This document shows positions 1,355-57,970 of a stretch of DNA of 64,000 nt, piece after piece; within the stretch, counting starts at the first letter, position 1; every line of letters starts with the position of its first letter. The notes under the pieces were generated by a model. The model made no database searches, was not told the DNA's origin, and was given only the letters and a program-made list of their open reading frames with translations. The DNA is taken from the NCBI GenBank assembly GCA_050261235.1, contig JBLNDB010000096.1, positions 2,161 through 66,160 on the forward strand. The letters are read 5' to 3'. The DNA comes from Chloroflexota bacterium. Its GTDB lineage: Bacteria > Bacillota > Sulfobacillia > JBFLWA01 > JBLNDB01. A program made the translations under genes and the position numbers.

Positions 1355-1391
1355 GGACCGCTTGCCCCTGCCCGAGTCGGATCTGTCGCCG

Positions 1392-1430
1392 CAAGCCCGC
1401 CGTCGGTTGACGGCGGGCTTGCGTTGTCCG
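1392..1430 (+). terminator. Stem-loop after pyk (gcaagcccgccgtcggttgacggcgggcttgc) with a weak T tract
   Basis: A perfect inverted repeat was seen directly in the sequence, followed by gttgtcc. There is no strong U run, so intrinsic termination is uncertain. Confidence 0.4.
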
Positions 1431-1481
1431 GGCATACTAGCTGAGACAGAGAGACAGGCCAGACCGGGAAGGGTGTCCACG

Positions 1482-3215
1482 ATGAAGTTCTTCAGTGGAG
1501 TCAGGTTGCGGCTGCGCGGGCAGCCGACCACTCAGCGCAAGGAAGCTCCGCCGCCGGGCGCCGGGCGACTGACGCCGCGCGCCTGGAAGGTGCGACACGG
1601 GCGGCCGGCGGAGAAGCCCGCACCGGAAGGCCAACCGCTATCGCGGTCGCTCGCCGGCAATGTCGAGCGGTTGAAGGAGATGATGGGCCGCGACAACGCT
1701 GACGTCATCATCCGCAGGTTCATCATCGGCACCAAGCCATCCATCCAGGCAGCGCTGTTCTTCATCGAGGGGCTGGCTGACCGGACCACTCACATAGAAG
1801 GCATTATCAAGCCGCTGATGGTCCAGTCGACGCGCGAGGTCGGCATGGCCGCGCCCGATCCGCGCGAACTGGCCGAGGTCATCCAGTCGCAGTTGATGCC
1901 GACTGCCGAGGCCTTGACCGTGACGACTCTCGAGGAAGTCGTCGACCACGCGATGACAGGCGAGTCGGCGCTGCTCATCGACGGGGCCACCGAGGCCGTC
2001 ATCATCGAGACACGCGGCTGGAAGAGCCGCGGCGTCGAGGCGCCGGAGACGGAGATCTCCATCCGGGGCCCACGCGAGTCCTTCACGGAAGTGTTGCGGT
2101 TCAACACCGCGCTCATCCGCAGGCGCATCCGCGACCCGCGCCTGCGGCTGGACGGGATGAGAGTCGGCCGGATGTCGCGGACAGATGTCGTAGTCGGCTA
2201 CATCCACGGTCTGACCGACCCGGATCTGATCACGACCGTGAAAGAGCGCATCAAGGCGATCGAGACTGACTTCATCCCAGACAGCAGCTACATCGAGCAG
2301 TTCATCGAGGACAGACCATTCTCGCCCTTCCCCCAGGTGCAGTACAGCGAACGGACCGACCGCGCCACTGCGGCGCTGGCTGAAGGTCGCCTGATCATCA
2401 TCGTCGACGGGTCGCCGATGGTGCTGATCATCCCATCGACCTTCACGACTCTCATCCAGGCGCCGGAGGACTATTACGAACGACCGATCCTCGGCACGTT
2501 CTTCCGCATCATCAGAAGCCTGTCCGCGTTCATCTCGCTGACCCTGCCGGCGTTCTACGTCGCCATCACGTCGTTCCACCAGGAGATGCTGCCGACCGAG
2601 TTGATACTGGCGTTCGCCGCGGCCCGCGAGCGCGTGCCGTTCCCGGCCATCGTCGAGCTGCTCGTCATGGAGGTCTCGCTCGAACTGGTCCGCGAGGCCG
2701 GCCTTAGGCTGCCATCGCCGGCCGGGCAGACAGTCGGCATCGTCGGCGCGCTCCTGCTTGGTCAGGCGGCAGTCCAGGCTCAGATCGTCAGCCCGATCAT
2801 CGTCATAGTCGTGGCGCTGACTGCCCTGGCGTCGTTCGCGGTGCCGCACTACTCGACGGGGATCGCCATCCGCGTGCTGCGATTCCTGCTGCTGATCCTC
2901 GGTGCCACGCTCGGGTTGTTCGGCGTTACCGCGGGCATGACCGCGATAACCATTCACATGGCCTCCCTGACATCGCTCGGCACGCCCTATCTGACCCCCC
3001 TGGCGCCACTGCGGCCGCGCTCGGCGCTGCTTGACACGGTTCTCCGCGCGCCCCTCTGGCGGCAGGACCTGCGCCCGGGCTGGCTCCACCCGCGCGACGA
3101 CCGGCGCCAGGCCAGGATCACCAGGCCATGGTCCAGCACCGCTCCTGACGCGGCGGGCGGTGGCGGCAAGACAGGCGGCAGGAAAGGCGGCAAGAAGGAG
3201 AGACGGCGGTCGTGA
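1482..3215 (+). CDS. Spore germination protein, GerA/GerKA family (germinant receptor A subunit)
   Basis: Start ATG at 1482 is preceded by gggaagggtg. The body shows GerA-family architecture with a soluble N-terminal domain and a C-terminal membrane domain. The C-terminal tail is unusually rich in Gly, Lys and Arg. The 3' end overlaps the next gene (GTGA). Confidence 0.85.
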   Translation: MKFFSGVRLRLRGQPTTQRKEAPPPGAGRLTPRAWKVRHGRPAEKPAPEGQPLSRSLAGNVERLKEMMGRDNADVIIRRFIIGTKPSIQAALFFIEGLADRTTHIEGIIKPLMVQSTREVGMAAPDPRELAEVIQSQLMPTAEALTVTTLEEVVDHAMTGESALLIDGATEAVIIETRGWKSRGVEAPETEISIRGPRESFTEVLRFNTALIRRRIRDPRLRLDGMRVGRMSRTDVVVGYIHGLTDPDLITTVKERIKAIETDFIPDSSYIEQFIEDRPFSPFPQVQYSERTDRATAALAEGRLIIIVDGSPMVLIIPSTFTTLIQAPEDYYERPILGTFFRIIRSLSAFISLTLPAFYVAITSFHQEMLPTELILAFAAARERVPFPAIVELLVMEVSLELVREAGLRLPSPAGQTVGIVGALLLGQAAVQAQIVSPIIVIVVALTALASFAVPHYSTGIAIRVLRFLLLILGATLGLFGVTAGMTAITIHMASLTSLGTPYLTPLAPLRPRSALLDTVLRAPLWRQDLRPGWLHPRDDRRQARITRPWSSTAPDAAGGGGKTGGRKGGKKERRRS

Positions 3216-4309
3216 AGGGCAAAATCAGCCTCATCGAGTTGACCATCATCTCGACCATCCTCATCGTCGGCACAGTGTTCATCCAACTGCCGGCGCGCCT
3301 GGCCCTGCTGGCCGAGCAGAGCGGCTGGCTCGGCATCCCGCTGGCCATGATTCCCGGCATTCTGCTGGCCCTGGCCATCGCCTGGCTCCATCGCCGGTTT
3401 CCTGACCAGTCTCCCGTCCGGTACATGCGCGAGATACTGGGTGAGCCCCTCGGATCGCTGTTCGCCATCTACATCACCGCTCTGCTCCTGGCCGCAGCCG
3501 CGTTCCTGGTGCGGGATTTCTCCGTGGCCATCATCATCGGCGCTCAGCCGCTGATGCCGCTGTCACTGGTGGTTGTCATCTTCCTGCTGTTGCTTCTGTT
3601 CATGACCTTCTGGGGGCTCGAGGTGATCGCCCGCACCGCGGTTGCGTTCCTGCCCTACATCGTCATCTCGCCGATCCTGGTGACCATCGGCAATCTGCGC
3701 TTCTCGCAGCCGGGAAGGCTCTTGCCCTTGCTCGGCGCGGGCCTGAAGCCGATTGCCGCCGCGACGTTCACCTCATCGGTCTACTTCAGCGAGCTGTTGA
3801 TCATGTCGGCCGTGCTGCCCAGAGTCCGTGACGCCCGTCGGGCGTCACTGGCGCTGTCGGCGGCCGTCCTGCTGGCCGTGCCGCCACTGGCGACGGTGGC
3901 GGCTTCGGCCGTCGCCGTCTTCGGCCCGACCGGGACGGCGCGGGCAGTCGTGCCTGGGCTCGAGCTGGCGCGCATGATCAGTTTTGGCGAGTCCCTGCAG
4001 CGCGTCGAGGCGGTGTTCGTCGTCTTCTGGATGATGGCGGCCATGATCAAGGTGGGCGTTTTCGTCTGGGTCGCCAGCGAGATGCTGGCCGAGACCATCC
4101 GCATCGAGAACTACCGGCTGTTGCTGCCGTCCATCGGCGCGCTGGTGTTCGTCCTCGCCATGCTGCCCCAGCACTTCTGGGATCAGACGCTCGCCTTCGA
4201 GGTGCTGGCTCGACTGATCGCGATATCGTTCTACACGACCCCGGCCGTGCTCATCGCGGTGGCTCTGATCAGACGAAAGGGTGGTCGGGCGAGCAATGGA
4301 CAACAATAA
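3212..4309 (+). CDS. Spore germination protein, GerAB/GerKB family (amino acid permease-like B subunit)
   Basis: Polytopic membrane protein of about 365 aa. Its GTG start overlaps the stop of the A subunit. This is the classic B-subunit position in a gerA-type tricistronic operon. Confidence 0.85.
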   Translation: MKGKISLIELTIISTILIVGTVFIQLPARLALLAEQSGWLGIPLAMIPGILLALAIAWLHRRFPDQSPVRYMREILGEPLGSLFAIYITALLLAAAAFLVRDFSVAIIIGAQPLMPLSLVVVIFLLLLLFMTFWGLEVIARTAVAFLPYIVISPILVTIGNLRFSQPGRLLPLLGAGLKPIAAATFTSSVYFSELLIMSAVLPRVRDARRASLALSAAVLLAVPPLATVAASAVAVFGPTGTARAVVPGLELARMISFGESLQRVEAVFVVFWMMAAMIKVGVFVWVASEMLAETIRIENYRLLLPSIGALVFVLAMLPQHFWDQTLAFEVLARLIAISFYTTPAVLIAVALIRRKGGRASNGQQ

Positions 4310-5564
4310 GGCCTGGCGGATCATGCAGGCAGTGCTGCTGGTCCTTGCCATCGCCGCCGTGCCGGTCCTGAGCGGCGGCTATGGCCGCCGTGAGGTCGAA
4401 GACACGGCGTTCGTCCTCGCGCTCGGGTTCGACCGGGCGCCCGACGGACAGGTCGCTGTCACCAGCCAGGTCGCCATCCCGGCCAAGGCCAAGGAGGGCG
4501 GCGGTGGCGGTGGCGATCTCCCGGTGATGGTCGTGACCAACACCGGTCGCACCGTCGCTGAGGCATTGCAGCAATTCGCCCTGTCGTCCAACAAGGAACC
4601 GTTCTGGGGCCACGTACGGGTGGCGGTGTTCGGCGAGGAGATCGCCCGTGAAGGCATTGCTCCGGTACTCGACTTCCTTGCCCGCAACCACGAATCGCGC
4701 GTGCTGATGTGGACAGCTGTGACGACCGGGCGGGCGAGCGACATTCTCGCCGCCAAAGCGCAGACCGAGAACCTGCCGGCGATGTTCCTGTCCGGCCTGA
4801 TAAGCCAGTCGCGCATACACTCGCTGGCGCCCATGACGACGCTATTCGACACCCTGCGGGAGATCGACGTGCGCACTGGCGATCCAGTGCTTCCGCTCAT
4901 CGATCTCGTCCAGCCCGGCACTCAGATCAAGCCAGGCGAGTCCGGTGGCGGTGGGCAGTCGAGCGGCGGCAGCGGCGAGCAGCAAGCTGCCGGAGAAGAT
5001 GCGAATCCGGTGCGCCTTGAGGGTGCCGGAGTGTTCCGTGACGACAAGCTGGTGGGCTTTCTCGACACCGAGCAGTCGCGGGGTCTTCAGTGGTTGCGGG
5101 GTGGCGTAAGGAACACGATCGTGACTTTCGCCGACCCGACGACCGGCGCGAGCGGGGCTTTGCGCGTGTTCGCCTCACGGCGTTCCGTCGTCAGCAGCAT
5201 CGATTTCGCCGACATCTCCCGCAGCCGCTTCAGGGTCAGAATCGAGGCCGACGCTTACTTCATCGAAAACACCGGCGGACCAGACGTGTTGAGCGCCGAG
5301 GGGCGGACCGCAGTCGAGAACGCAGCGGCCGCTGTCATCAGGAACGAGGCCATGGCTTCTCTCGACATTGTCCAACACCAGTATCGAGCAGACGTTCTTG
5401 AACTCGGCGAGCAGGTTCGCCGGCGGATGAGCAACGCTGCTTGGGAGCAGGTGCGCAGCACGTGGTTCGATGCCTTGTCGGACGTCCAGGTCGAGGTCAC
5501 TGTCGATCTCAAGCTGCGGCGGCCGGGACTGCTGACCGGCAGAGTCGGTCTCGGACGTCGCTAG
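4296..5564 (+). CDS. Spore germination lipoprotein, GerAC/GerKC family (C subunit)
   Basis: N-terminal signal-like segment MDNNKAWRIMQAVLLVLAIAAVPVLSGG followed by a Ger(x)C-like domain. It is the third gene of the operon. The start at 4296 was chosen over 4281 for better RBS spacing (gggtgg, 11 nt). Confidence 0.8.
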   Translation: MDNNKAWRIMQAVLLVLAIAAVPVLSGGYGRREVEDTAFVLALGFDRAPDGQVAVTSQVAIPAKAKEGGGGGGDLPVMVVTNTGRTVAEALQQFALSSNKEPFWGHVRVAVFGEEIAREGIAPVLDFLARNHESRVLMWTAVTTGRASDILAAKAQTENLPAMFLSGLISQSRIHSLAPMTTLFDTLREIDVRTGDPVLPLIDLVQPGTQIKPGESGGGGQSSGGSGEQQAAGEDANPVRLEGAGVFRDDKLVGFLDTEQSRGLQWLRGGVRNTIVTFADPTTGASGALRVFASRRSVVSSIDFADISRSRFRVRIEADAYFIENTGGPDVLSAEGRTAVENAAAAVIRNEAMASLDIVQHQYRADVLELGEQVRRRMSNAAWEQVRSTWFDALSDVQVEVTVDLKLRRPGLLTGRVGLGRR

Positions 5565-5610
5565 ACGCGCAGACGAATCCGGCCGGGCGCTCGCCCGGCC
5601 GGATTCGCCG

Positions 5611-5772
5611 TTACCACATGAAGGCTTCCCACAGTCCGAGGCCCAAGATCAGCACTCCCATGACCGACAGGCAGAAACCGCCGAGGTAGTTGCGCCGGCG
5701 CAATTGCCCATAGGCGATGGCCCACGTATAAGTGGAGAAGAGTGCGGCTGCGAATATCGCTATGTAGAGCAC
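5611..5772 (-). CDS. Small hypothetical membrane peptide (about 53 aa) convergent with gerAC
   Basis: The C-terminal 53 residues of minus-strand ORF 5611..5931 (VLYIAIFAAALFSTYTWAIAYGQLRRRNYLGGFCLSVMGVLILGLGLWEAFMW) form two clean TM helices. The GTG start is preceded by tggggtga. Support is weak. Confidence 0.25.
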   Translation of the reverse strand: MLYIAIFAAALFSTYTWAIAYGQLRRRNYLGGFCLSVMGVLILGLGLWEAFMW

Positions 5773-5897
5773 CGAATCACCCCAAGGAAATGTTGTGCCC
5801 CGCCGGGGCCCGCTATTCAGCAGGAATTGCGGTCCAGCCACCGAAAAGCAGTTATTGCCTGCCAACCGACACCAGCGACCGAAAGGAGCACGCATCG

Positions 5898-7280
5898 ATG
5901 GACTTTGACCGCGAGCTGGTAGCTGAGCCATTCCGCATCAAGATGATCGAAAAGGTCAAGCTGACGACCCGCGAGCAGCGCGAGAAGCTGATTGCCGACG
6001 CCGGCTACAACGGCTTCCTCCTCCGCTCTGAGGACGTCTACATCGACCTGCTCACCGACAGCGGCACCGGCGCTATGAGCGATTACCAGTGGGGCGGCCT
6101 GATGCAGGGCGACGAGGCCTATGCCGGCAGCCGCAACTTCTGGCATCTCAAGGATGTCATCAAGGACCTGATGGGATTCGATTACGTGATCCCGACCCAT
6201 CAGGGACGCGCAGCGGAGAACGTCCTGTTCACCACGCTCCTCAAGCCCGGCCAGTCGATTCCGAACAACATGCACTTCGACACGACCAAGGCGCATGTCG
6301 AACACAAGCGCGGCCGCGCCGTCGACCTCGTCTGCCCGGAAGGCCTCGAGGCCCAGTCCGACTACCCGTTCAAGGGCAACATGGATGTCGACCGCCTCGA
6401 CGCGTTCATGAAGGAACACGGCAGCGACAAGGCGCCGTTCATCATGATGACGGTGACCTGCAACAGCAACGGCGGTCAGCCGGTGTCGATGGCCAACATC
6501 GGGGCCGTCCGCCGCATCGCCGACAAGTACGGTGTGCCGCTGTTCTTCGACGTCGCCCGCTTCGCCGAGAATGCTTACTTCATCAAGCAGCGCGAGACTG
6601 GCTATGCGACCAAGAGCATCAAGGAGATCGTTCGTGAGATGTTCTCCTATGCCGACGGCTGCACGATGAGCGCCAAGAAGGACGCCATCGTCAACATCGG
6701 CGGCTTCATCGCGCTGAGGAGCGAGAAGCTGTACCGCGAATGCATGGTCTGGGCCGTCCTGTTCGAGGGCTTCATCACCTACGGCGGCCTCGCCGGCCGC
6801 GACCTCGAGGCGATCGCCCGCGGCCTCGAGGAGGTCGTCGACGATCAGTATCTGGCGCAGCGCATCGGCCAGGTCAAGTATCTCGGCGATGAGCTGATCC
6901 GCGCTGGCGTGCCGATCGTCACTCCCACCGGCGGCCACGCGATCTACCTTGACGTCCGCAAGATCCTGCCGGACATGCCGTCTGACCAGTTCCCCGGGCA
7001 GGCCCTCTGCGCCGAGCTCTACGTCGAGGGCGGCGTCCGCGGCGTCGAGATCGGCTCCGTCATGGCCGGTCGCGATCCCGAGACCGGCGCCAATCTGACG
7101 CCGGAGCTCGAGCTGGTACGCCTGGCGATCCCGCGTCGTGTCTACACTGATCGCCACATGGACGTCGTCGCCAGGACCTGCGCGCGCGTCATGGCGCGAC
7201 GGGACAGCATCCGCGGGCTCAGGTTCGCGTACGAGGCCCCGGTGTTGAGGCATTTTACGAGCCGATTCGAGCAGGTGTAG
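5898..7280 (+). CDS. tnaA: Tryptophanase (tryptophan indole-lyase), a PLP-dependent beta-eliminating lyase
   Basis: ATG at 5898 is preceded by gaaaggagcacgc. Tryptophanase signatures include EPFRIKMIEKVKLTTREQRE, FARFAENAYFIKQRE, SAKKDAIVNIGG, ALCAELYVEGGVRGVEIGS and a C-terminal VLRHFTSRFEQV. The match is closer to TnaA than to tyrosine phenol-lyase. Confidence 0.9.
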   Translation: MDFDRELVAEPFRIKMIEKVKLTTREQREKLIADAGYNGFLLRSEDVYIDLLTDSGTGAMSDYQWGGLMQGDEAYAGSRNFWHLKDVIKDLMGFDYVIPTHQGRAAENVLFTTLLKPGQSIPNNMHFDTTKAHVEHKRGRAVDLVCPEGLEAQSDYPFKGNMDVDRLDAFMKEHGSDKAPFIMMTVTCNSNGGQPVSMANIGAVRRIADKYGVPLFFDVARFAENAYFIKQRETGYATKSIKEIVREMFSYADGCTMSAKKDAIVNIGGFIALRSEKLYRECMVWAVLFEGFITYGGLAGRDLEAIARGLEEVVDDQYLAQRIGQVKYLGDELIRAGVPIVTPTGGHAIYLDVRKILPDMPSDQFPGQALCAELYVEGGVRGVEIGSVMAGRDPETGANLTPELELVRLAIPRRVYTDRHMDVVARTCARVMARRDSIRGLRFAYEAPVLRHFTSRFEQV

Positions 7281-7307
7281 ACACGCGAACTATGGCAGAC
7301 CCCCCAA

Positions 7308-7414
7308 GGGTAGGCCGTTCTCCATGGGATCAGCGGCCCGGCTTCATTCATCGCGCTGTCTGTTGCGCGGTGTCAAGGAGGCCGGGCCGCGATCCAATTC
7401 CGAACGGCCTACCC
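7308..7414 (+). repeat. Structured intergenic element, copy A (candidate cis-regulatory or structured RNA)
   Basis: Outer inverted repeat GGGTAGGCCGTTC...GAACGGCCTACCC encloses TCCATGGGAT, CGGCCCGGC, a TCGCGC/GCGCG hairpin, CAAGGAGGCCGGGCCG and ATCCAATTCCG. It shares core motifs with the copy at 37665-37796. It starts 28 nt after the tnaA stop. Confidence 0.45.
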
Positions 7415-7475
7415 ATTGGTGGGTCTCCCATAGTGCGCCCGCCACACCTTCTGGCGTCGGCTTCAGCAGCGCGTC

Positions 7476-7509
7476 TGTCAAGGAAGCCGGACCGTCGTTC
7501 CAATTCCGG
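7476..7509 (+). repeat. Partial third copy of the same element core (TGTCAAGGAAGCCGGACCG...TCCAATTCCGG)
   Basis: It shares AAGGAAGCCGGACCG and TCCAATTCCG with copies A and C. It lacks the outer stem and the TCCATGGGA segment. Confidence 0.35.
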
Positions 7510-7647
7510 CCCGCCCACCACTCGGGGGCACGGCCGCACAATCACCGGCAGGCCCGTAACGGCGCGTTACGGGCCTGTTCTCTCGGCTGCGCCGGCGTGT
7601 CGATCTGTGCTAGAATGGATGTACGTTGGCGGAGAGGGGGAGAGGGC

Positions 7648-8694
7648 ATGCGAAGCAATGCCGCGCGCTGGGCCGTGACCGGCCTCGTCGCTGCAGCCAC
7701 GCTGCTGCTGGCATTCCGGTTGCGGGCGGTGCTGTCGCCGTTCCTCACCGGGCTCGTCATCGCCTATCTCCTGGCGCCGGCCGCGGCCTTCTTCCAGCGC
7801 CGTGGGCTATCGCGCGGTCTGGCGGTGGCGGCGGTGTACGTGACCGTGATCGTGGTCTTCAGCCTCGTTGCCTTCTGGGTCATGCCCCGCGTCTTCGCCG
7901 AGTTGGCCAGGCTGGCCGAGAACCTGCCGGCATACACCGAGCAGATTCAGGGCCTGATTGCCCAGGCTCAGGCCAGGTACGAGTTCGTCCCGCCGTCGGT
8001 GCGGCAGGTAATCGAGCAGACCGCGGCCGACCTCGGCGCCGGGCTGATGACGGCAGTCAAGACCGCCATCCAGGGGAGCGCCGGATTCGTCTCCGGCCTT
8101 GCCAATTTCGTCTTCGCGTGGATCGTCTCCGTCTACTTCCTGCTTGACTGGCGGAAGATCGGGCAGCGCTGCCTGGCTCTGCTGCCGCTCGCGTCGCGCC
8201 CGGTGGCGGAGCAGCTCGCCGCTGACCTGGACGATCTCCTGGGTGGCTACCTGCGCGGAATGGCCATGCTCGCGGCCATCACCGGCGTCGCCTCGGGGTT
8301 CATCGTGCTCATTGCCGGCCTCCGGTTCGCGTTGCTGTTCGGCATCCTGTCGGCGGTCGGCGAGTTCATCCCGTACTTCGGCCCGCTCGCCGCGGCCGCC
8401 GCGCCGATCATCATGGCATGGTTGCGCTCGCCGGCGCTGGCGCTCAAGGTCGCCATCGCCTACATCATAGTCCAGCAGATCCAGTCGAATGTCATCTCGC
8501 CGAAGGTGGTCGGCGACCGGCTCGGCCTGCACCCGCTGGCCATTCTGTTCGCTCTGCTCGCCGGCCAGTCGCTGTTCGGCGTTCCCGGAATGCTGCTCGC
8601 GGCGCCGGTTGCCGGCATGCTCGGCATCCTCATCCGCTACGCCAGCCGCTGGTTGCCCGGCAGCCGCCCGGCGACCGGCGGCGGCAGCCCGTAG
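7648..8694 (+). CDS. AI-2E family transporter (PerM/UPF0118 family permease)
   Basis: Polytopic membrane protein with the typical AI-2E layout. The start at 7648 (MRSNAARW) is preceded by ggagagggggagagggc. An alternative ATG lies at 7615. Confidence 0.8.
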   Translation: MRSNAARWAVTGLVAAATLLLAFRLRAVLSPFLTGLVIAYLLAPAAAFFQRRGLSRGLAVAAVYVTVIVVFSLVAFWVMPRVFAELARLAENLPAYTEQIQGLIAQAQARYEFVPPSVRQVIEQTAADLGAGLMTAVKTAIQGSAGFVSGLANFVFAWIVSVYFLLDWRKIGQRCLALLPLASRPVAEQLAADLDDLLGGYLRGMAMLAAITGVASGFIVLIAGLRFALLFGILSAVGEFIPYFGPLAAAAAPIIMAWLRSPALALKVAIAYIIVQQIQSNVISPKVVGDRLGLHPLAILFALLAGQSLFGVPGMLLAAPVAGMLGILIRYASRWLPGSRPATGGGSP

Positions 8695-8741: not shown

Positions 8742-8770
8742 CAGCGCCCCGGCCATTGGCCGGGGCGCTG
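8742..8770. terminator. Perfect palindrome cagcgccccggcc-a-ttggccggggcgctg between two convergent genes (candidate bidirectional terminator)
   Basis: Seen directly in the sequence. It sits between the AI-2E transporter (+) and mntH (-). Confidence 0.5.
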
Positions 8771-12631: not shown

Positions 12632-12716
12632 GCCGAAGTGGCGGAATTGGCAGACGCGCTCGACTCAAAATCGAGAGTGGTTACCCCACGTGCGGGTTCA
12701 AGTCCCGCCTTCGGCA
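12632..12716 (+). tRNA. tRNA-Leu (anticodon CAA), type II with a long variable arm
   Basis: Cloverleaf read by hand. Acceptor GCCGAAG/CTTCGGC, D-arm GGCGGAATTGGCAGAC, anticodon stem CTCGA/TCGAG with loop CT-CAA-AA, long variable arm, T-arm GCGGGTTCAAGTCCCGC. Confidence 0.9.
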
Positions 12717-16939: not shown

Positions 16940-16974
16940 GATTGCGGAGCGATCCGCCAACCGAATAGAGTCAG

Positions 16975-17060
16975 GCCGCTAGGGGAGCTGCAAAGCTGAG
17001 ACGCGGGACACCGCAAACCCTTGGGACCCGAACTGGATAATACCAGCGTGGGGAAGTGGC
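16975..17060 (+). ncRNA. TPP (THI-box) riboswitch
   Basis: Carries the conserved THI-element blocks: CTAGGGGAGCTG...GCTGAGA...ACCC...GAACTGGATAATACCAGCGTGGGGAAG. It lies upstream of a ThiT-like ECF S-component gene. Confidence 0.8.
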
Positions 17061-17081
17061 GATCGATAACAAGACCGCAAA

Positions 17082-17110: not shown

Positions 17111-17171
17111 CCTGTCCATGGCCGCTTTATCTCCGGCGGGGGAAGCTACCAACCGCGAAGGGGGATTCGTG

Positions 17172-17726
17172 ATGCGCAACCAGAGAGTGAGAATGGTCGT
17201 CGAAGCAGGGATGGCGATCGCGCTCACAGCCATCCTGCACCAGATCAAGGTCTATCAGATGCCGTTCGGCGGTGCGGTGACCGCCGGATCGATGATCCCG
17301 CTGCTGATCATCGCTCTCCGCTGGGGCCCGGGAATCGGCATGATCGCGGGCGCCGCCTACGGACTGATCGACTACATGTTCGAGCCGTGGTTCCTCACAC
17401 CCTGGCAGTTCCTGCTCGACTACCCGGTTCCGTTCGCCCTGCTCGGTCTGGCGGGCCTGCTGCGGCGTCAGCCGTACCTCGGCGTCGCGCTCGGCGTCGC
17501 CGGGCGTTTCGCCTCGCACCTGCTGTCCGGCGTCATCTACTGGGCGGCCAGCGCCGACCAGGTTCAGGCGGGGATGAACCCGTGGGTCTACTCCGCCATC
17601 TATAATGGGCAGTACCTGATTCCCGAGCTGATCCTTGCGCTGGCTCTGCTCGCCGCCCTGATGCCGACCTTCCGCCAGCAGGGCTTCCTACTGCCGGCGG
17701 GGCAGAGGCGCGGCGGCGCGCGGTAG
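17172..17726 (+). CDS. thiT: ThiT/YuaJ-like thiamine transporter (ECF S component)
   Basis: Six-TM protein of 184 aa sitting directly behind a TPP riboswitch. The ATG at 17172 is 7 nt after GGGGG. Confidence 0.75.
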   Translation: MRNQRVRMVVEAGMAIALTAILHQIKVYQMPFGGAVTAGSMIPLLIIALRWGPGIGMIAGAAYGLIDYMFEPWFLTPWQFLLDYPVPFALLGLAGLLRRQPYLGVALGVAGRFASHLLSGVIYWAASADQVQAGMNPWVYSAIYNGQYLIPELILALALLAALMPTFRQQGFLLPAGQRRGGAR

Positions 17727-25145: not shown

Positions 25146-25179
25146 AAGCCCCGGCCAACGGCCGGGGCTTTGCGTTTTC
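25146..25179 (+). terminator. Rho-independent terminator (aagccccggcc-aac-ggccggggctt then gcgttttc)
   Basis: An 11-bp perfect stem plus a T tract, downstream of mutM and the small ORF. Confidence 0.65.
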
Positions 25180-31028: not shown

Positions 31029-31069
31029 GCACGACAGAGCGGACCTCCCCGCAGAGGTCCGCTCTGTCG
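31029..31069 (+). terminator. Long stem-loop after the opp operon (acgacagagcggacctc...aggtccgctctgtcgt); no U tract
   Basis: A 17-bp inverted repeat seen directly. A role in intrinsic termination is uncertain. Confidence 0.35.
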
Positions 31070-31207
31070 TCTCTGCCCGCGATGCGGCCCAACGCGAGCG
31101 ACTGCGACCGGGGTGAATCAATATTCCACGGCCGCAAATCCTAACGACGCGCGCAGCCATTGCAGGTGAATACGTTCCATGCGGCGAAACACACCTGTCA
31201 AATCTCA

Positions 31208-32577: not shown

Positions 32578-32661
32578 GCCGAAGTGGCGGAATTGGCAGA
32601 CGCGCTGTGTTCAGGGCGCAGTAGGCGATAGCCTGTGCGGGTTCAAATCCCGCCTTCGGCA
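32578..32661 (+). tRNA. tRNA-Leu (anticodon CAG)
   Basis: Same acceptor and D-arm as the tRNA at 12632. Anticodon loop TT-CAG-GG. Long variable arm. Confidence 0.9.
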
Positions 32662-35243: not shown

Positions 35244-35390
35244 TCGATCACCTCAGCCCGCTCCTCCTTGCAGGGGCGGGCTGTTTGTGCGTTTCCGGCC
35301 GCGACGTGCCAATTTGTGAAGCAGAGTGCAGTCGCGGGAGGACAAGCCGCAGCCCTTGTTGAACTGAGGTTCTGTTTGACCAACTCCGGG

Positions 35391-36353
35391 ATGGGAGGCA
35401 AGACATTGAGCGACATCAAACGCAACATATTGGAGGCCATCGGCCAGACGCCAGTCGTTGAGCTGCAGCGCGTCCGGCCTGCCAACGGGACGCGCATCCT
35501 GGTCAAGGTGGAGGCCTTGAGTCCCGGCGGCAGCATCAAGATCCGCCCGGCCTACAACATGGTCAAGGAAGCGATCAAGCAGGGGCGCCTCAAGCCGGAT
35601 TCGATCATCGTCGAGGCGACCAGCGGCAACCAGGGCATCGCGCTCTGCCTCGTCGGCGCCGCGCTCGGCTACCGCGTCCGGATCGTCATGCCCGCCTGCA
35701 TGAGCAAGGAGCGCCAGATGCTGATGCGCTCCTATGGCGCGGAATTGGTCCTGACCGATCCCGGCAAGGACATCGGTGAGGCGATTCTGACGGCCAAGGC
35801 GACCGCCGAGAAGATGGCGGCTGAAGATCCGCGCGTCTTCTTCGCGAGTCAGTTCACCAACGAGAACAACCCGGCGGCGCACCGCAACACGACGATCGCC
35901 GAAATTCTGAAGCAGATCGGTGACGAAACCGAGGTCGACGCCTTCGTTTCCGGCATCGGCACCGGCGGCACGATCACCGGCTGCGGCGAGGTCCTCAAGG
36001 AGAAGTTCCCGCACTGTCGGATCGTCGCTGCCGAGCCCAGCGAGGCAGCCATTCTTGCCGGCAAACCGATCGGCAATCACATTCAGCAGGGCATCGGCGA
36101 TGGCCTGATTCCGGACGTGCTCAACACGAAGATCATCGATGACATTGTTCTCGTCACCGATGATGAGGCCGCCGCCACGGCACGCCGTCTGGCGAAGGAA
36201 GAGGGACTGTTTGTCGGGGTTTCCTCCGGCACGAACGTGTGCGCCGCGCTGAAAGTGGCGGAAAAGCTCGGACCGGGCAAGACTATAGTGACGCTTTGCC
36301 CTGATACCGGCGAACGCTACCTCAGCCTCGGCGTGTTCGGCGTCGAAGATTAG
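35391..36353 (+). CDS. cysK: Cysteine synthase A (O-acetylserine sulfhydrylase), PLP-dependent
   Basis: Signatures [20 protein letters not shown] and the lysine-containing PLP site. An alternative TTG start at 35407 gives a more typical N-terminus ([16 protein letters not shown]). Confidence 0.85.
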
Positions 36354-36385
36354 CACAATCCAGTCGCAGAATGGGAGGGTATTGC

Positions 36386-37633
36386 GTGTACGAGCATCTC
36401 AAGATTGACGACCCGCAGGTCTACGAGGCCATGAAGAACGAACTGGCCCGGCAGCGCGACGGACTCGAGCTGATCGCTTCCGAGAACTTCGCTCCGCTGT
36501 CAGTGATCGAGGCTCAGGGATCCGTGTTCACGAACAAATACGCCGAAGGCTTGCCGCGGAAGCGCTACTACGGTGGCTGCGTCTACGTCGACATCGTCGA
36601 GCAGTTGGCCATCGATCGCGCCAAGGAGCTGTTCGGGGCAGAGCATGCCAACGTCCAGCCCCATGCCGGCGCCCAGGCCAATACGGCTGTCTACTTCGCC
36701 ATGCTGACCCCGGGCGACACCGTCCTCGGCATGGACCTCGCTCACGGCGGTCACCTGACGCACGGCCACCCGCTCAACTTCTCGGGCAAGTACTTCCGGT
36801 TCGTTCCCTACGGCGTCCGCGAGGACAGCGAGGTCATCGACTATGATGTCGTCGAGAAGCTCGCCGTCGAGAACAAGCCGAAGCTGATCGTCGCCGGCGC
36901 CAGCGCCTATCCGCGCGTCATCGATTTTCCGCGGCTGCGCGAAATCGCCGACAAGGCCGGCGCGATGCTGATGGTCGACATGGCCCACATCGCCGGTCTC
37001 GTCGCCGCAGGCGTCCATCCCAGCCCGGTGCCGTACGCCGACTTCGTCACCACCACGACTCACAAGACTCTGCGCGGACCGCGCGGCGGCCTCATTCTCT
37101 GCCGCAAGCAGTACGCCAAGGACATCGACCGCTCGGTCTTCCCGGGGCTCCAGGGCGGGCCGCTCGAGCACGTCATCGCCGCCAAGGCCGTTGCGTTCAA
37201 GCTCGCGGCCGGCGAGGAGTTCAAGGCCTATCAGCGCTGCGTCGCTGACAACGCCCAGGCGCTCGCCAAGGCCCTCGTGAAGGGCGGCCTGCGCTTGGTC
37301 TCCGGCGGCACCGACAACCATCTCATGCTCGTCGACCTGACGCCGAAGAACATCACTGGTCTCGACGCGCAGGAGCGGCTGGCCGAGATTGACATTACGG
37401 TCAACAAGAACGCCATTCCGTTCGACAAGCTGCCGCCGGCCAAGACTTCCGGCATCCGCGTCGGCACTCCGGCCTGCACGACCCGCGGCATGGGCGTGAA
37501 GGAGTTCGAGGAGATCGGCGCCATCATCGCCGAGTCGTTCGGCAGCGACTTCGAGGCTGTCAAGGGATCGCTCAAGGCCCGCGTGGCGGCGCTCTGCAAG
37601 CGGTTCCCGCTGTACCCGGACCTGGCCGAATAG
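36386..37633 (+). CDS. glyA: Serine hydroxymethyltransferase
   Basis: GTG at 36386 is 5 nt after GGGAGGG. Signatures [17 protein letters not shown] and the PLP-lysine region [14 protein letters not shown]. Confidence 0.9.
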
Positions 37634-37664
37634 GCGCGCACTGTCGCGGGGGACACCCTGTGAA

Positions 37665-37796
37665 GGGACCGGCGCCATTGACTGATACTCCATGGGATTC
37701 TCGGTCCGGCCCGGTTCGTCGCGCACTGTGCGCAGCGCGCCAACGCGGAAGCCGGACCGACAATCCAATTCCGTATCAGCCAAAGGCGCCGGTCCC
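37665..37796 (+). repeat. Structured intergenic element, copy C (candidate cis-regulatory or structured RNA)
   Basis: Outer inverted repeat GGGACCGGCGCC...GGCGCCGGTCCC encloses TCCATGGGAT, CGGTCCGGC, a TCGCGCACTGTGCGCA hairpin, GGAAGCCGGACCG and ATCCAATTCCG. It starts 32 nt after the glyA stop and ends 69 nt before the amidohydrolase start. Confidence 0.45.
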
Positions 37797-37864
37797 GACG
37801 CACGATGTCCCCCCCAGGTGACACCCCGCGGCGTGCGGCGGAAGCGGAGAGGGAAGAGGAAACC

Positions 37865-39067
37865 ATGGGAGGGTCGGGAATGGCTGGATTGGCGGAACTG
37901 AAGGGCCAGGCGCGCGCTGAGGTCGACCGTGAGCAGGCGCGCCTGATCGACATCTCACATCAGATCCACCGCAACCCCGAGATCGCCATGCAGGAACATC
38001 AGGCAGCGGCGCTCCTGACCGGAACGCTCGAGGCTGAGGGGTTCACCGTCACCCGCGGCGTCGCCGGCATGGAGACTGCGTTCATCGCCGAATTCGGCCA
38101 TGGCGACGGTCGCGCCGTCGGCATCCTCGCCGAGTACGACGCCCTGCCGGGCATCGGCCACGCCTGTGGACATAACGTCAGCGCTGCCGCCTGTACCGGC
38201 GCCGGTATCGCCGTCAAGCGCCTGCTCGCCGCAGGCAAGTTGACCGGCACGATCAAGGTCTTCGGCACGCCAGCAGAAGAGGGCGGCGGTGGCAAAGTCC
38301 TGATGGCCAACGCCGGGCTGTTCGCAGGCATCGATGCGGCCCTCGCCATGCATTGCGGTCAGCGCAATTCGGTCGGCGGCTCCTGCCTTGCCACCCAGGC
38401 GTTCACTTTCCGCTTCCACGGCAAGCCGGCTCACTCGGCGGCCGCGCCGGACAAGGGCGTCAACGCGCTGGACGCGGTCATCCAGACGTTCAGCGGTCTG
38501 AACGCGATGCGTCAGCACGTCCGGCCGGACGTCCGGTTGCATGGCATCATCACCAACGGCGGCCAGGCGGTCAACATCGTCCCCGAGTTCGCCGAATGCC
38601 GCATCCAGGTGCGGGCCGCCAAGAAGGCCTATCTCGCCGAGGTCATCGACCGGGTGCTGAACATCGCTCGCGGCGCTGCCCTGCAGACCGGCGCGACGCT
38701 GGACTACGAGGGGGACCTGCCGTATGACGATATCCTCGAGTGCCCGCCGTTGGCGCATCTGCTCAAGGCCAACATGGAACAGCTCGGCCTGACGGTGGAG
38801 GATCACGCCGGTCTGGTCACGCCGGCCTCGAGCGATGTCGGCAACGCCAGCTACGTCGTGCCGACGGTCGAGGCCAACTTCGCGATGTGCGGCCCCGACA
38901 TCGCCCACCACACTGAGGGCTTCCGCGAGGCCTCAGGCTCGCCGGCGGGCGACGCGGCCGCGCTCAATGCCGCCAAGACGCTGGCCATGACGGCCATCGA
39001 CCTGCTCGCCTCGCCCGCCGCCGCGGCGGCAGTGCGGGCCTGGTTTGAGCAGGCAAAGCAGGGTTAG
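37865..39067 (+). CDS. M20 family amidohydrolase (M20D aminoacylase/hippurate hydrolase/AbgB-like)
   Basis: Metal-binding motifs GHACGHN and GTPAEEGGGGK. The ATG at 37865 follows gagggaagaggaaacc. Confidence 0.8.
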   Translation: MGGSGMAGLAELKGQARAEVDREQARLIDISHQIHRNPEIAMQEHQAAALLTGTLEAEGFTVTRGVAGMETAFIAEFGHGDGRAVGILAEYDALPGIGHACGHNVSAAACTGAGIAVKRLLAAGKLTGTIKVFGTPAEEGGGGKVLMANAGLFAGIDAALAMHCGQRNSVGGSCLATQAFTFRFHGKPAHSAAAPDKGVNALDAVIQTFSGLNAMRQHVRPDVRLHGIITNGGQAVNIVPEFAECRIQVRAAKKAYLAEVIDRVLNIARGAALQTGATLDYEGDLPYDDILECPPLAHLLKANMEQLGLTVEDHAGLVTPASSDVGNASYVVPTVEANFAMCGPDIAHHTEGFREASGSPAGDAAALNAAKTLAMTAIDLLASPAAAAAVRAWFEQAKQG

Positions 39068-43714: not shown

Positions 43715-43796
43715 GTCGGAGTGGCGGAATTGGCAGACGCGTACGTTTGAGGGGCGTATGGAGGAATCCGTGCGGGTTCAAGTCCCGCCTCCGACA
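43715..43796 (+). tRNA. tRNA-Leu (anticodon GAG), copy 1
   Basis: Acceptor GTCGGAG/CTCCGAC, anticodon loop TT-GAG-GG, variable arm TGGAGGAATCCGT. A hairpin with T run follows. Confidence 0.9.
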
Positions 43797-43967
43797 CAAG
43801 AGTGCCTCCTCTTCCCGATTCGGGAAGAGGAGTCTTTTTCATTCCTGCGCCGCGGCAACGAGCTGCGGCGACTGAATTCTCCGCGCGGCGAGCGAGCCTG
43901 CAGGGGGAATCGCTACGTGGGGCGAACTATATCTCGCGGTACGGCAGCTGGCAGGAGGCATGGTCGC

Positions 43968-45356: not shown

Positions 45357-46916
45357 ATGAGTAAAGTTAACGCGGGTCGGCGCCTCTGAAAACAGGAACG
45401 AGACGGTTCCTCTCCGAAGGTGTAAGCGCCAACAAACACCCTAGGGAAGAGGGGACCCATCTCGTCATGGCGGATTTCAACGAACTCGTCGCAGTATCCT
45501 TCTCAGAGCTTGAAAGAACGCTGTTCGAAGGCTTGACCAAGTTGTTCCTCGAGGCCATGACGGAGCTGCTTTCAAGGCTTGATGCTCAGGTCGCTGGGAA
45601 GCGTGACAAGCAGCGGTATGTAATCGTTGAACGCAAGGAGACGTGCCTTGAAACCATGCTCGGGCCTTTGCGCTTCCGCCGGCGTGTTTACCTGGACCGG
45701 GAGACGGGAGAACGGGTCTACGGGCTGGACGAGGCGCTTGGACTGACGAAACGTGCCAGGGTGAGCCCGGGGCTGAAGGAAGCCGCAGTGAGGGAAGCCG
45801 TTGAGGCACCGTCGTACCGCGCGGCCCGGGACAGTCTCGAGCGCAGGCATGGCCAGCGGGTGATGAGCCACGAGACCATACGGCAGCTGACGCTGAAGAC
45901 CGGGAAGGAGATACAGCGTGCTGACGAGGCTCTGGCGCTTGAGCCCAATGGCGAGCGGAAGATCCCGGTGCTGTTCATCAAGGCGGATGGGCTGTACGTG
46001 TCAAGGCAGAAGGCAGGCAAGCGTGAAGAGCGGTTCGTCATAGCGCATGAAGGCTGGCAGCGCAGGAGCCCTGGCAGCGAAGAATACGAGCTCGTGAACA
46101 AGACGTACATACACTGCGACTCGGCCGGTGACGTCTGGGAGCAGGCGAGCCGGATGCTGTTCGCCAGATACGACCTCAGCGACACAGTTGTCGTCGTCAA
46201 TGGCGACCGCGCCAAGTGGATCCGCGAGGGAGTGCGGTACTTCCCGAAAGCCATCTACCAGTTTGACCGGTTCCATCTGCTGCGGGATGTCAAGGCGAAA
46301 CTCAGGCTGGCACCGCAGGCAAGGAAGGAAGTGCTCCAGGCTATACGTGACGGAAGGTCGCGGGATGTGCTCGATCTCATGCACAAGGTGAGACTCAGTG
46401 ACGGAAAGCTAAACGCGAGCTCGACGAACTGAGGCGCGACTTGCAGCGCTTTCCCGAGGCGATGGTGGACTACCGTGTGCGGCTGGCGATGATGGGCTTG
46501 GATACGGCCGGCATGCGAGGTATGGGCTCGGCTGAGTCCAACATGAACCACTTGGCGCGCCGACTGAGAAAGCAAGGCCGCAGCTGGTCCAGAAACGGCT
46601 TGAGAGCAATGATCCGGGTGATGATTAAGCTCTTCGAGGGCACGCTGCACCGCTTCACGCAGAGCCTGATGGACATCACGGAGCACCTGGATGCAGAGAT
46701 GCTGCTGACCGGCGCAGGCCGGATTGTGCAGGCGGCTCTGGACAAGGCGAGCTACGTCGCGGGCAAGACGTACCGGATGCCGATTCGACAAGCTGGAAGC
46801 AACGTGTCGCGTGGTCTCTCTGAGTTCATGAACCGTCTGAACCGAGCACTGCCGGCGCAGTTGGCCTAGCAGACCTCAAACGCAACACTTCGGGAAGGAA
46901 CGGCGCCGACCCGCGT
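45357..46916 (+). mobile_element. IS element, ISLre2 (UPF0236)-like, about 1.56 kb with imperfect terminal inverted repeats
   Basis: Left end TTAACGCGGGTCGGCGCC (about 45361-45378) is the reverse complement of the right end GGCGCCGACCCGCGTTTG (about 46897-46914). It encloses one transposase reading frame split in two. Confidence 0.6.
45467..46869 (+). pseudogene. ISLre2-family transposase interrupted by a single frameshift near 46415-46432
   Basis: ORF 45467-46432 (321 aa) and ORF 46441-46869 (142 aa) together make roughly 460 aa, the length of an ISLre2/UPF0236 transposase. The second frame reads through ...RKAKRELDELRRDLQRFPEAM... directly after an in-frame TGA. The break lies at GGAAAGC, consistent with a 1-nt indel in an A run. 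It is not a slippery heptamer. Confidence 0.65.
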
Positions 46917-46989
46917 TTGCTTGACAGACTCGCGGACGTGCTGACACATGACAGCGGCAACGAGTTGTGCTATCATCAGATGTGCGATT

Positions 46990-47071
46990 GTCGGAGTGGC
47001 GGAATTGGCAGACGCGTACGTTTGAGGGGCGTATGGAGAAATCCGTGCGGGTTCAAGTCCCGCCTCCGACA
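46990..47071 (+). tRNA. tRNA-Leu (anticodon GAG), copy 2
   Basis: Identical to copy 1 except for one base in the variable arm (GGAGGAAT versus GGAGAAAT). It has its own promoter (TATCAT -10) and terminator hairpin (gcctcctccttctgctcgcagggggaggc). Confidence 0.9.
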
Positions 47072-47233
47072 CCGGTAAAGCCTCCTCCTTCTGCTCGCAG
47101 GGGGAGGCTTTTGCTTGCTCGACGGCTCGGCTGAAACCAGAAGCTCACCTGCGCTGTACTTGAATGGTCATGATTGTGCGTGACGCGGTCCGGAACCGCG
47201 CCGCTGGCAAAGCGGCGCAAGGGAGCGAGATCA

Positions 47234-57880: not shown

Positions 57881-57935
57881 CCCCGGCTGCTGAAGCGGGG
57901 CTGCCTCACCTCCTCTGGCCCGCCGTGAGCGGGCA

Positions 57936-57970
57936 AACACCCTGCGCCAACTGGCGCAGGGTGTTTCTCT
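57936..57970. terminator. Hairpin aacaccctgcgcc-aact-ggcgcagggtgtt then tctctt, between cotJC (+) and the convergent efflux operon (-)
   Basis: A 13-bp perfect stem. Likely the terminator for cotJ, and possibly bidirectional. Confidence 0.5.

Follow-up and report, generated by a model that had tools for sequence, protein, structure and literature searches.

The REP/REPIN-RAYT systems of Enterobacteria and Pseudomonas are built on repetitive extragenic palindromes (REPs), which are intergenic, imperfect, duplicative and hairpin-forming, and which lie just after stop codons. REPs are transcribed in 3' untranslated regions (3' UTRs), are recognised as hairpins rather than by stem sequence alone, and stabilise the upstream mRNA; one of them lies downstream of E. 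coli glyA. The ERIC/IRU and Correia (NEMIS) palindromes, which resemble miniature inverted-repeat transposable elements (MITEs) and measure 100-150 bp, show presence/absence polymorphism, fold into long RNA hairpins on co-transcription and can influence how mRNAs are processed and how stable they are. Integron attC sites are hairpins just 3' of open reading frames (ORFs) in which the structure and the unpaired bases are kept, the stems vary and gene content changes nearby. The RNase III signals of phage T7 are intercistronic hairpins whose upper and lower stems are split by a conserved internal loop, and their cleavage leaves the upstream message with a 3' hairpin that protects it. There are also rod-like riboswitches built around one conserved internal loop, such as NMT1/xanthine and NAD+-I; each is one hairpin with its invariant loop between covarying helices, found with a defined gene class. 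Here we describe an intergenic palindromic hairpin element in a 64-kb window (the whole stretch of DNA analysed, from contig JBLNDB010000096.1 of an assembly labelled Chloroflexota). It is unusual in two ways: only its internal loop is conserved, and it is tied to genes of one cofactor class, those of enzymes dependent on pyridoxal 5'-phosphate (PLP). In its behaviour the element is most like REP/REPIN, ERIC or Correia-type palindromes that are transcribed into 3'-UTR hairpins, yet it fails their defining features.

The evidence supports a small family of units of about 100-170 bp that is duplicative and whose internal loop and placement are under selection. The explanation we prefer, and hold tentatively, is a duplicative hairpin module that is co-transcribed in 3' UTRs and intercistronic spacers, is retained beside PLP-enzyme genes and has its loop read by a trans-acting factor. 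In the window the family comprises two full copies, A (7308-7414) and C (37665-37796), both lying where an earlier note on this DNA had placed them, and a decayed third copy, B (7415-7528), which that note did not list. Copies A and C carry the same two exact blocks, TCCATGGGAT then ATCCAATTCCG, in the same order, with a gap of 61 nt in A and 64 nt in C. Exact TCCATGGGAT occurs in the window at 7321 and 37689 and nowhere else, and exact ATCCAATTCCG only at 7392 and 37763; by our own calculation, both exact blocks would recur by chance in this order and spacing at a second site with a probability of ~1e-6 in 128 kb. The earlier limits enclose the core correctly, and the hairpins themselves extend beyond them, to 7298-7425 (A) and 37648-37813 (C). 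The additional pairing in A joins 7298-7307 to 7415-7425 and stems from a flanking C-run and G-run. The parts of the hairpins, and a further hairpin that follows A and B, are as follows.

7298-7425 (+): copy A, whole hairpin, an inverted repeat; minimum free energy (MFE) -95.8 kcal/mol, z = -11.1; covariance-model score 92.9 bits
7308-7320 (+): 5' arm of the outer helix P1 of A, GGGTAGGCCGTTC, which pairs with 7402-7414 (GAACGGCCTACCC)
7321-7331 (+): conserved 5' block of A, TCCATGGGAT plus C, invariant across five sequences; TCCATG at 7321-7326 is the 5' side of the internal loop and GGATC at 7327-7331 is in helix P2
7333-7390 (+): inner helix P3 of A with the apical GC-rich hairpin that it encloses; 7333-7345 pairs with 7378-7390
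7391-7402 (+): conserved 3' block of A, G followed by ATCCAATTCCG; GATCC is in P2, AATTCC at 7396-7401 is the 3' side of the loop and G7402 closes P1
7415-7528 (+): copy B, degenerate, directly after A; covariance-model score only 9.8 bits
7549-7577 (+): 13-bp GC hairpin followed by TTCTCTC, after A and B
37648-37813 (+): copy C, whole hairpin with 63-nt arms that are 81% complementary; MFE -111 kcal/mol, z = -9.0; 78.2 bits; 5' block at 37689-37698 and 3' block at 37763-37773

Copies A and C each fold as a single long hairpin, and RNAalifold independently gives the same plan as the MFE folds: P1, a 6x6 internal loop, P2 and P3. P1 is unconstrained in sequence, 13-40 bp long and closed by an invariant C-G pair. 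The internal loop has UCCAUG on its 5' side and AAUUCC on its 3' side; it is followed by P2, GGAU(Y)/(R)AUCC, a small junction, and P3 (CGGYCSRRCUUC and its partner), beyond which lies a variable tip. Inspection allows the loop to be read as a symmetric 3x3 UCC/UCC loop with two possible A-U pairs and a G·A mismatch; K-turn, loop E and attC-box readings of it, tried in the same way, do not fit. Three shared unpaired blocks had been proposed for the two copies. Two of them, TCCATGGGAT and ATCCAATTCCG, are exact in both; the third, AAGGARGCC, is the 3' strand of the inner helix P3 and not unpaired, and copy C has only GGAAGCC there. The apical GC-rich hairpin, first described as kept, is present in the window-genome copies and limited to them, the copies of relatives being without it. 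Copy B has a 5' half composed of the arm ATTGGTGGGTC and a 5' block decayed to TCCCATAGTG. Its 3' half is intact, with GGCTTCA..GTCTGTCAAGGAAGCCGGACCG, then TTCCAATTCCG at 7498-7508, and a 3' arm GCCCGCCCACC..CGGGGG.

The conserved loop with covarying stems is a solid observation. The covariation alignment holds five sequences, which amount to four independent stem sets. Standard pairs occupy 92.4% of its cells, both sides have changed in 12 of the 29 pairs, and none of 500 shuffles reached the observed pairing or covariation score, bearing out the proposal that the helices have changed in a base-pair-preserving way. When the partner strand was slid as a control, pairing fell to 19-49%. In P1 eight of nine pairs vary, leaving the outer stems effectively unrelated between loci, and P3 shows the swaps C-G/U-A, C-G/G-C and G-C/A-U. 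Throughout, the 21 nucleotides of the loop and P2 stay fixed: TCCATGGGAT is unchanged in all full copies, and ATCCAATTCCG is altered once, to ATCCAATTGCG, in the copy of one relative (contig L095). The spacing of the two blocks takes the values 44, 46, 61 and 64 bp across copies.

The genes that adjoin the two window loci agree with those first named, Beta_elim_lyase (tnaA-like) and AI-2E at A, SHMT and M20 at C. The AI-2E transporter gene lies downstream of A, and the others are placed as follows.

5742-7280 (+): tnaA-like gene for a beta-eliminating lyase (Beta_elim_lyase, PLP fold type I), whose TAG stop lies 17 nt before hairpin A
35268-36353 and 36371-37633 (+): PALP gene and glyA (serine hydroxymethyltransferase, SHMT), 17 nt apart, which together make up the other PLP-enzyme unit of the window; 14 nt separate the glyA stop codon from hairpin C
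37805-39067 (+): M20 amidohydrolase gene, downstream of C

PLP-enzyme genes number three among ~54 in the window (tnaA and the adjacent PALP and glyA) and form two units, and both element loci sit exactly at the 3' ends of these units (hypergeometric p = 0.002 when the position must be immediately 3' of a PLP gene, and 0.007 when either side counts). The two genuine loci of an unbiased metagenome scan described below also border PLP genes (Aminotran_1_2|PALP and CorC|glyA), which strengthens the remark of the earlier note on PLP-dependent neighbours. A PLP-enzyme gene adjoins all four independent loci, and at three of the four the distance from the stop codon of a fold-type-I PLP enzyme to the start of the element is 0-17 nt. 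Were insertion random among intergenic sites, this pattern would be expected with p roughly 1e-3 to 1e-4. Every copy is in sense orientation with its flanking genes.

Related copies were recovered from contigs obtained by exact-protein look-ups and by one metagenome scan with a two-loop pattern, in which 2 of 13 matches were genuine (L085 and L090). Shared samples and identity levels assign the contigs to three apparent related genomes: G1, the window type (L075-77 and, from shared samples, probably L102-108); G2 (L078, L090, L085/L110, L109 and L111); and G3 (L095, L097 and L098). Flanking proteins are 84-93% identical between them. The sample thus consists of about five loci in three uncultured genomes, and full copies outside the window are found at these positions.

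L078:9663-9773 (G2), and L098 from its first base (G3): full copy after CorC, upstream of glyA
L085:1534-1703 and L109:3938-4106 (G2): full copy between an aminotransferase gene and a PALP gene
L095:11441-11556 (G3): full copy after tnaA

Presence/absence polymorphism is seen at every locus among these relatives. The glyA-3' site holds C and the M20 gene in G1 and only an ordinary hairpin in G2 and G3, with L078 missing both C and M20. The CorC-3' site holds the element in G2 and G3, a plain hairpin and the PALP gene in G1, and nothing in L099. The aminotransferase-PALP spacer is 44 nt long and empty in G1 (L102) and holds ~170 nt of element in G2 (L109). Each of these three sites is filled in one relative and empty in another, so that the element is not conserved at orthologous loci. 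The tnaA-3' site, occupied by units A and B in G1 and by a single unit in G3 (L095), is the only site common to two genomes. Judged by its outer arms, B is tentatively the ortholog of the single L095 copy: its 3' arm is identical to that of L095 at 17 of 23 positions, against about 50% for other pairs, although MAFFT instead aligns the L095 copy to A. Identities of the B core are modest (68% to A, 62% to C and 56% to L095), and its resemblance to A and C could reflect concerted evolution, which we regard as a lead and not a result. The element is absent from the contigs of more distant relatives (L079-81, L096, L099 and L112), and the family appears confined to one uncultured high-GC lineage. 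Two of these distant contigs carry other features: L081 has an IS605 OrfB/TnpB-like gene at 2873-3679 (PF01385, PF07282), and L096, whose tnaA product is 80% identical, has another GC-rich repeat of ~37 nt (gtgggccggcccgggtgaRcctccgcggcagaggcgc) twice downstream of tnaA, at ~1550-1590 and ~1915-1955.

The unit is copied as a whole. Two G2 loci (L085/L109 and L078/L090) share 111 nt at 95.5% identity, and against L098 the shared unit, with a tail, is 146 nt at 92%; in both comparisons the flanks are unrelated. Since the G2 loci share the element and not the flanks, whole hairpins have been copied to new sites, and this is the one pair of near-identical copies found at unrelated loci. The duplicated unit takes in the outer stem and the TAG that ends the upstream ORF, and in L078 and L085 the stop codon of that ORF is provided by the unit itself. 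In G2 and G3 (L098 88-147, L109 4046-4106 and L085 1645-1703), three features come in turn after the full hairpin: ~38 nt rich in A, a degenerate 3' block TCAATTTCG and another copy of the 3' outer arm. This tail is missing in L078 and L090, as though a deletion between the two direct arm copies had removed it. A promoter scan of the A-rich tail in the L098 and L109 copies detected none.

These results bear most directly on a second explanation that we consider nearly as likely as the module, namely that the element is a purely selfish palindrome of MITE, REP or REPIN-like type. It would form a hairpin in single-stranded DNA, with the loop as the recognition or cleavage site of a transposase encoded elsewhere, and its adjacency to PLP genes would be a coincidence or a target preference. 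Covarying stems would be expected here too, as the enzyme would need a hairpin and not a particular sequence. The near-identical units between unrelated flanks speak for such a repeat, as do the presence/absence pattern, the nested or tandem decayed copies (A with B, and the tail with a second 3' arm in L098 and L109), the ORF stops supplied by the unit and the contigs that break at or inside the element (L095, L097, L098 and L111). Several further results speak against it, beginning with the contact of all four independent loci with PLP-enzyme genes. The outer stems are unrelated between subfamilies, unlike the products of simple copy-and-paste. No direct repeats of the kind left by target-site duplication are seen at empty/filled junctions, the compared genomes being too diverged to fix exact ends. 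One could take the invariant TCC...TCC for a fixed duplication of 3 bp that surrounds a smaller core, but this reading conflicts with the copying of the outer stem along with the core. The only insertion sequence (IS) in the window, of the ISLre2/UPF0236 family, has terminal repeats unrelated to the hairpin, and a link to it was rejected.

Copy number also appears low. When the 64-kb window and ~145 kb of lineage contigs (~210 kb in total) were searched with a covariance model (R1), no additional copy turned up, leaving three units in the window and none in the lineage contigs beyond the known loci, which argues against a dense repeat. The earlier note had treated many copies with identical, non-covarying stems as the mark of a REP/MITE-type repeat. 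The near-identical duplication of the unit at two loci, outer stem included, comes close to that picture. The note's contention that all copies of a MITE would have the same terminal repeats is only half right: subfamilies do differ completely, but within one of them the stems are copied. ERIC/IRU and Correia elements keep their whole sequence and their terminal repeats across copies and have target duplications, whereas here no duplication is visible, and what the subfamilies have in common is limited to 21 nucleotides of the loop plus a portion of the inner helix. Compared with REPs, the element has no GTAG-type 5' tetranucleotide, measures 100-170 nt against 20-40 nt for a REP palindrome, conserves an internal loop and not the hairpin foot, has unrelated outer stems and appears to be low in copy number. 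Adjacency to one enzyme class is also not a REP property, and no RAYT gene was seen: among the window ORFs scanned there is no Y1_Tnp/RAYT, those under about 200 aa having been only partly scanned.

Under the module that we prefer, a whole hairpin would be copied into another intergenic region, landing a few nucleotides past a stop codon, and would be co-transcribed with the upstream gene, always in the sense direction, as a very stable RNA hairpin in a 3' UTR or between cistrons. A trans-acting factor, most likely a protein, would recognise the conserved internal loop, and through this loop the hairpin would serve as a controlled 3' end, a stabiliser or a processing signal and thereby affect expression. 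Selection would keep those copies that lie beside PLP-dependent amino-acid-catabolic genes (tnaA, glyA and the aminotransferase-PALP-M20 operon). A parallel for processing is offered by the T7 RNase III signals; these are phage-encoded and fixed in position, however, and RNase III needs no long invariant sequence.

Several observations weigh against this reading. Firstly, A·C mismatches are as common as G·U (G·T in DNA), a balance that suits a selfish DNA palindrome: whole arms contain ~11 A·C versus 7 G·U once orthologous L078/L085 counts are removed, and the P1-P3 core ~3 A·C versus ~4 G·U. The minus strand, moreover, folds better than the plus strand both for C (-129 versus -110 kcal/mol) and for L095 (-90.7 versus -84.7 kcal/mol). 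Because a strong RNA constraint would favour G·U, the balance of mismatches and the better minus-strand folds argue against a strongly constrained plus-strand RNA. Secondly, gene orientation is confounded with replication direction, and the consistent sense orientation therefore cannot separate RNA from single-stranded DNA. Thirdly, one of the four loci follows a non-PLP gene, CorC, and the PLP association is a matter of four loci and of a hypothesis drawn partly post hoc from the same data. Finally, rapid gain and loss together with outer stems of 13-40 bp is the behaviour of a mobile DNA palindrome, and no candidate trans factor was identified. The element is real and also appears at new sites, and it may be a regulator or a small mobile repeat.

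The same loop and gene context could also suggest a ligand-sensing, riboswitch-like RNA, in which the loop would form a pocket for PLP, a B6 vitamer or an amino acid and would tune PLP enzymes; we regard this as possible but unlikely. As in riboswitches generally, a conserved core lies between covarying helices, and PLP-enzyme gene adjacency is exclusive. In line with the statement that the element matches no known class, Rfam 15 returned only a thiamine pyrophosphate (TPP) riboswitch and four tRNAs at gathering score over the whole window, and in the region 7200-7650 at E<=10 only two chance matches (12.3 and 9.1 bits, both E>3). PLP itself has no validated riboswitch class (PMC10043782), which sets it among a small number of universal coenzymes. 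The placement, however, fits such an RNA poorly: the element goes with the 3' end of the ORF upstream, beginning 0-17 nt past its stop, and the downstream start codon lies at 18 nt (L109), about 55-65 nt (C) or about 220 nt (L078). In addition, A and B are separated from the downstream gene by the hairpin at 7549-7577.

In rod-like aptamers the stems are short, the position is a 5' leader equipped with an expression platform, and orthologous loci retain the RNA. The element departs from them on every one of these points. A 5'-leader position with a platform at a consistent distance and orthologous conservation, both generic riboswitch features, are missing, and no alternative-pairing platform was seen at the loci. 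The perfect stems are extremely long and tolerate A·C mismatches, and coenzyme riboswitches normally control genes for synthesis or transport and not coenzyme-using enzymes. The original interpretation as a functional structured RNA survives with regard to structure, loop and covarying stems; a stable, gene-specific leader or riboswitch does not fit the gain and loss of copies, the inconsistent platform distance, the stems of 13-40 bp and the frequency of A·C relative to G·U. The TPP riboswitch is full length, lies at 16971-17071 (+) upstream of an ORF at 17118-17726 and scores 71.4 bits.

An improbable, if slightly broader, version is a riboregulatory module for PLP enzymes, in which the loop (UCC/UCC with the G·A mismatch) would bind PLP, a B6 vitamer, an amino-acid signal or a PLP-responsive protein, would set the stability or 3' ends of mRNAs for enzymes that use the cofactor and would spread by duplication to further PLP-enzyme genes. 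If true, it would be the first case of an RNA element linked to the status of vitamin B6. More generally, if the PLP link holds in complete genomes, the element would offer a test case of ~85 nt for a mobile yet selectively retained structured element at one gene class, and would also test whether bacteria monitor vitamin B6 or amino-acid catabolism through RNA. If it is selfish, it would be an unusual palindromic repeat with only the internal loop conserved and the terminal stems free, pointing to an undescribed structure-reading enzyme in the lineage.

Changes in gene content beside the element bring in a DNA-level site, in which the two blocks would be joined by a cruciform or bound on duplex DNA by a recombinase or by a PLP-dependent regulator of the MocR/PdxR type, with the neighbouring changes arising by site-specific recombination. 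Gene presence does track the element: C and M20 occur together in the window and are both missing in L078, and the window has PALP between CorC and glyA where L078 has the element. Mismatches without strand bias would suit a DNA site, and PLP-enzyme genes are typical targets of MocR-type regulators. We nevertheless judge this account decidedly unlikely. The block spacing varies among 44, 46, 61 and 64 bp, which suits a hairpin and not a duplex operator; variable genes are flanked by one element and not two; and the positions are at gene 3' ends, not promoters. No recombinase or MocR-type gene is found among the annotated window ORFs. The likeness to attC sites, which act on one strand, ends at the sequence level, as inspection of the aligned copies revealed no R''/R' boxes (RYYYAAC / GTTRRRY) at the hairpin feet. 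The element also differs from attC in having housekeeping flanks such as tnaA, glyA and transporter genes, no cassette array or nearby integrase, and one site per variable gene. The PALP gene of L085 was considered as the gene missing from the CorC-glyA locus of L078 and was rejected, since it is another paralog that shares just 24% identity with the window PALP; between the two M20 genes the identity is likewise low, 28%.

The position of the elements 0-17 nt after stops would also be that of ordinary U-less 3'-end hairpins of this genome that happen to share descent. The genome ends many genes with perfect GC hairpins of 13-17 bp and little or no U tract (1390-1423, 5574-5607, 7549-7577, 31031-31070 and 57935-57966), which suggests U-less 3'-end signals in this organism, and the stem GCCCCGGCC..GGCCGGGGC is common to two such hairpins, at 8745-8766 and 25148-25168. 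As had been stated, no U tract follows either full copy: a scan for U tracts and terminators in 7000-8000, 37500-38000 and L109:3850-4200 gave no site resembling an intrinsic terminator. This explanation is nonetheless very improbable, as the other hairpins are without an internal loop and reach about 15 bits at most under the covariance model, and a terminator would have no need of 21 invariant nucleotides. A separate terminator-like hairpin, at 7549-7577, follows A and B. It is likely where the tnaA transcript truly ends, in which case A and B would lie within the 3' UTR of tnaA. Because the genome already ends many genes with long U-less GC hairpins, a hairpin of the preferred module that inserted after a stop could readily take over a 3'-end role.

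Wider searches and other readings of the sequence added no further members. A genome-collection scan with GCCGGRCCGN{1,6}WTCCAATTCCG gave 74 matches, all due to chance and without the 5' block or hairpin; the inner-helix part of this pattern is specific to the window genome, and the scan accordingly says little about relatives. Two matches in a viral scan were both chance, and BLAST against plasmids gave no match. A small peptide starting at the ATG inside TCCATGGGAT was rejected, as the frames do not agree at the 3' block and a Shine-Dalgarno sequence is lacking, and a 456-aa ORF at 7324-8694 is a high-GC artefact that runs into the AI-2E gene. The upstream stops are all TAG, and a recoding or PYLIS-like signal was considered; it was rejected, since TAG accounts for 23 of 54 window stops and the next in-frame stops lie within 10 codons.

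Some observations concern the window more broadly. The 3' block CCAATTCCG exactly complements 9 nt (CGGAATTGG) in the D-arm of all four tRNA-Leu genes of the window (complement sites on the minus strand at 12642-12652, 32588-32598, 43725-43735 and 47000-47010), which is probably chance (roughly p = 0.02). Two tRNA-Leu(GAG) genes, 99% identical (43715-43797 and 46990-47073), flank an MFS transporter gene and the ISLre2/UPF0236 IS. This IS has 24-nt terminal inverted repeats (45361-45384 and 46902-46925) and a transposase split into two ORFs (45467-46432 and 46441-46869). Directly upstream of tnaA lies a GerA/spore permease/GerAC germination operon (window 1362-5564; L095 5608-9675), and, outside the lineage, tnaA and glyA have their nearest homologs in Bacillota. 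The glyA product itself is identical to a protein of a metagenome-assembled genome with the NCBI label Chloroflexota. Because of this operon and these homologs the Chloroflexota label at NCBI is doubtful; probably it is wrong, or the lineage is an unusual high-GC spore former.

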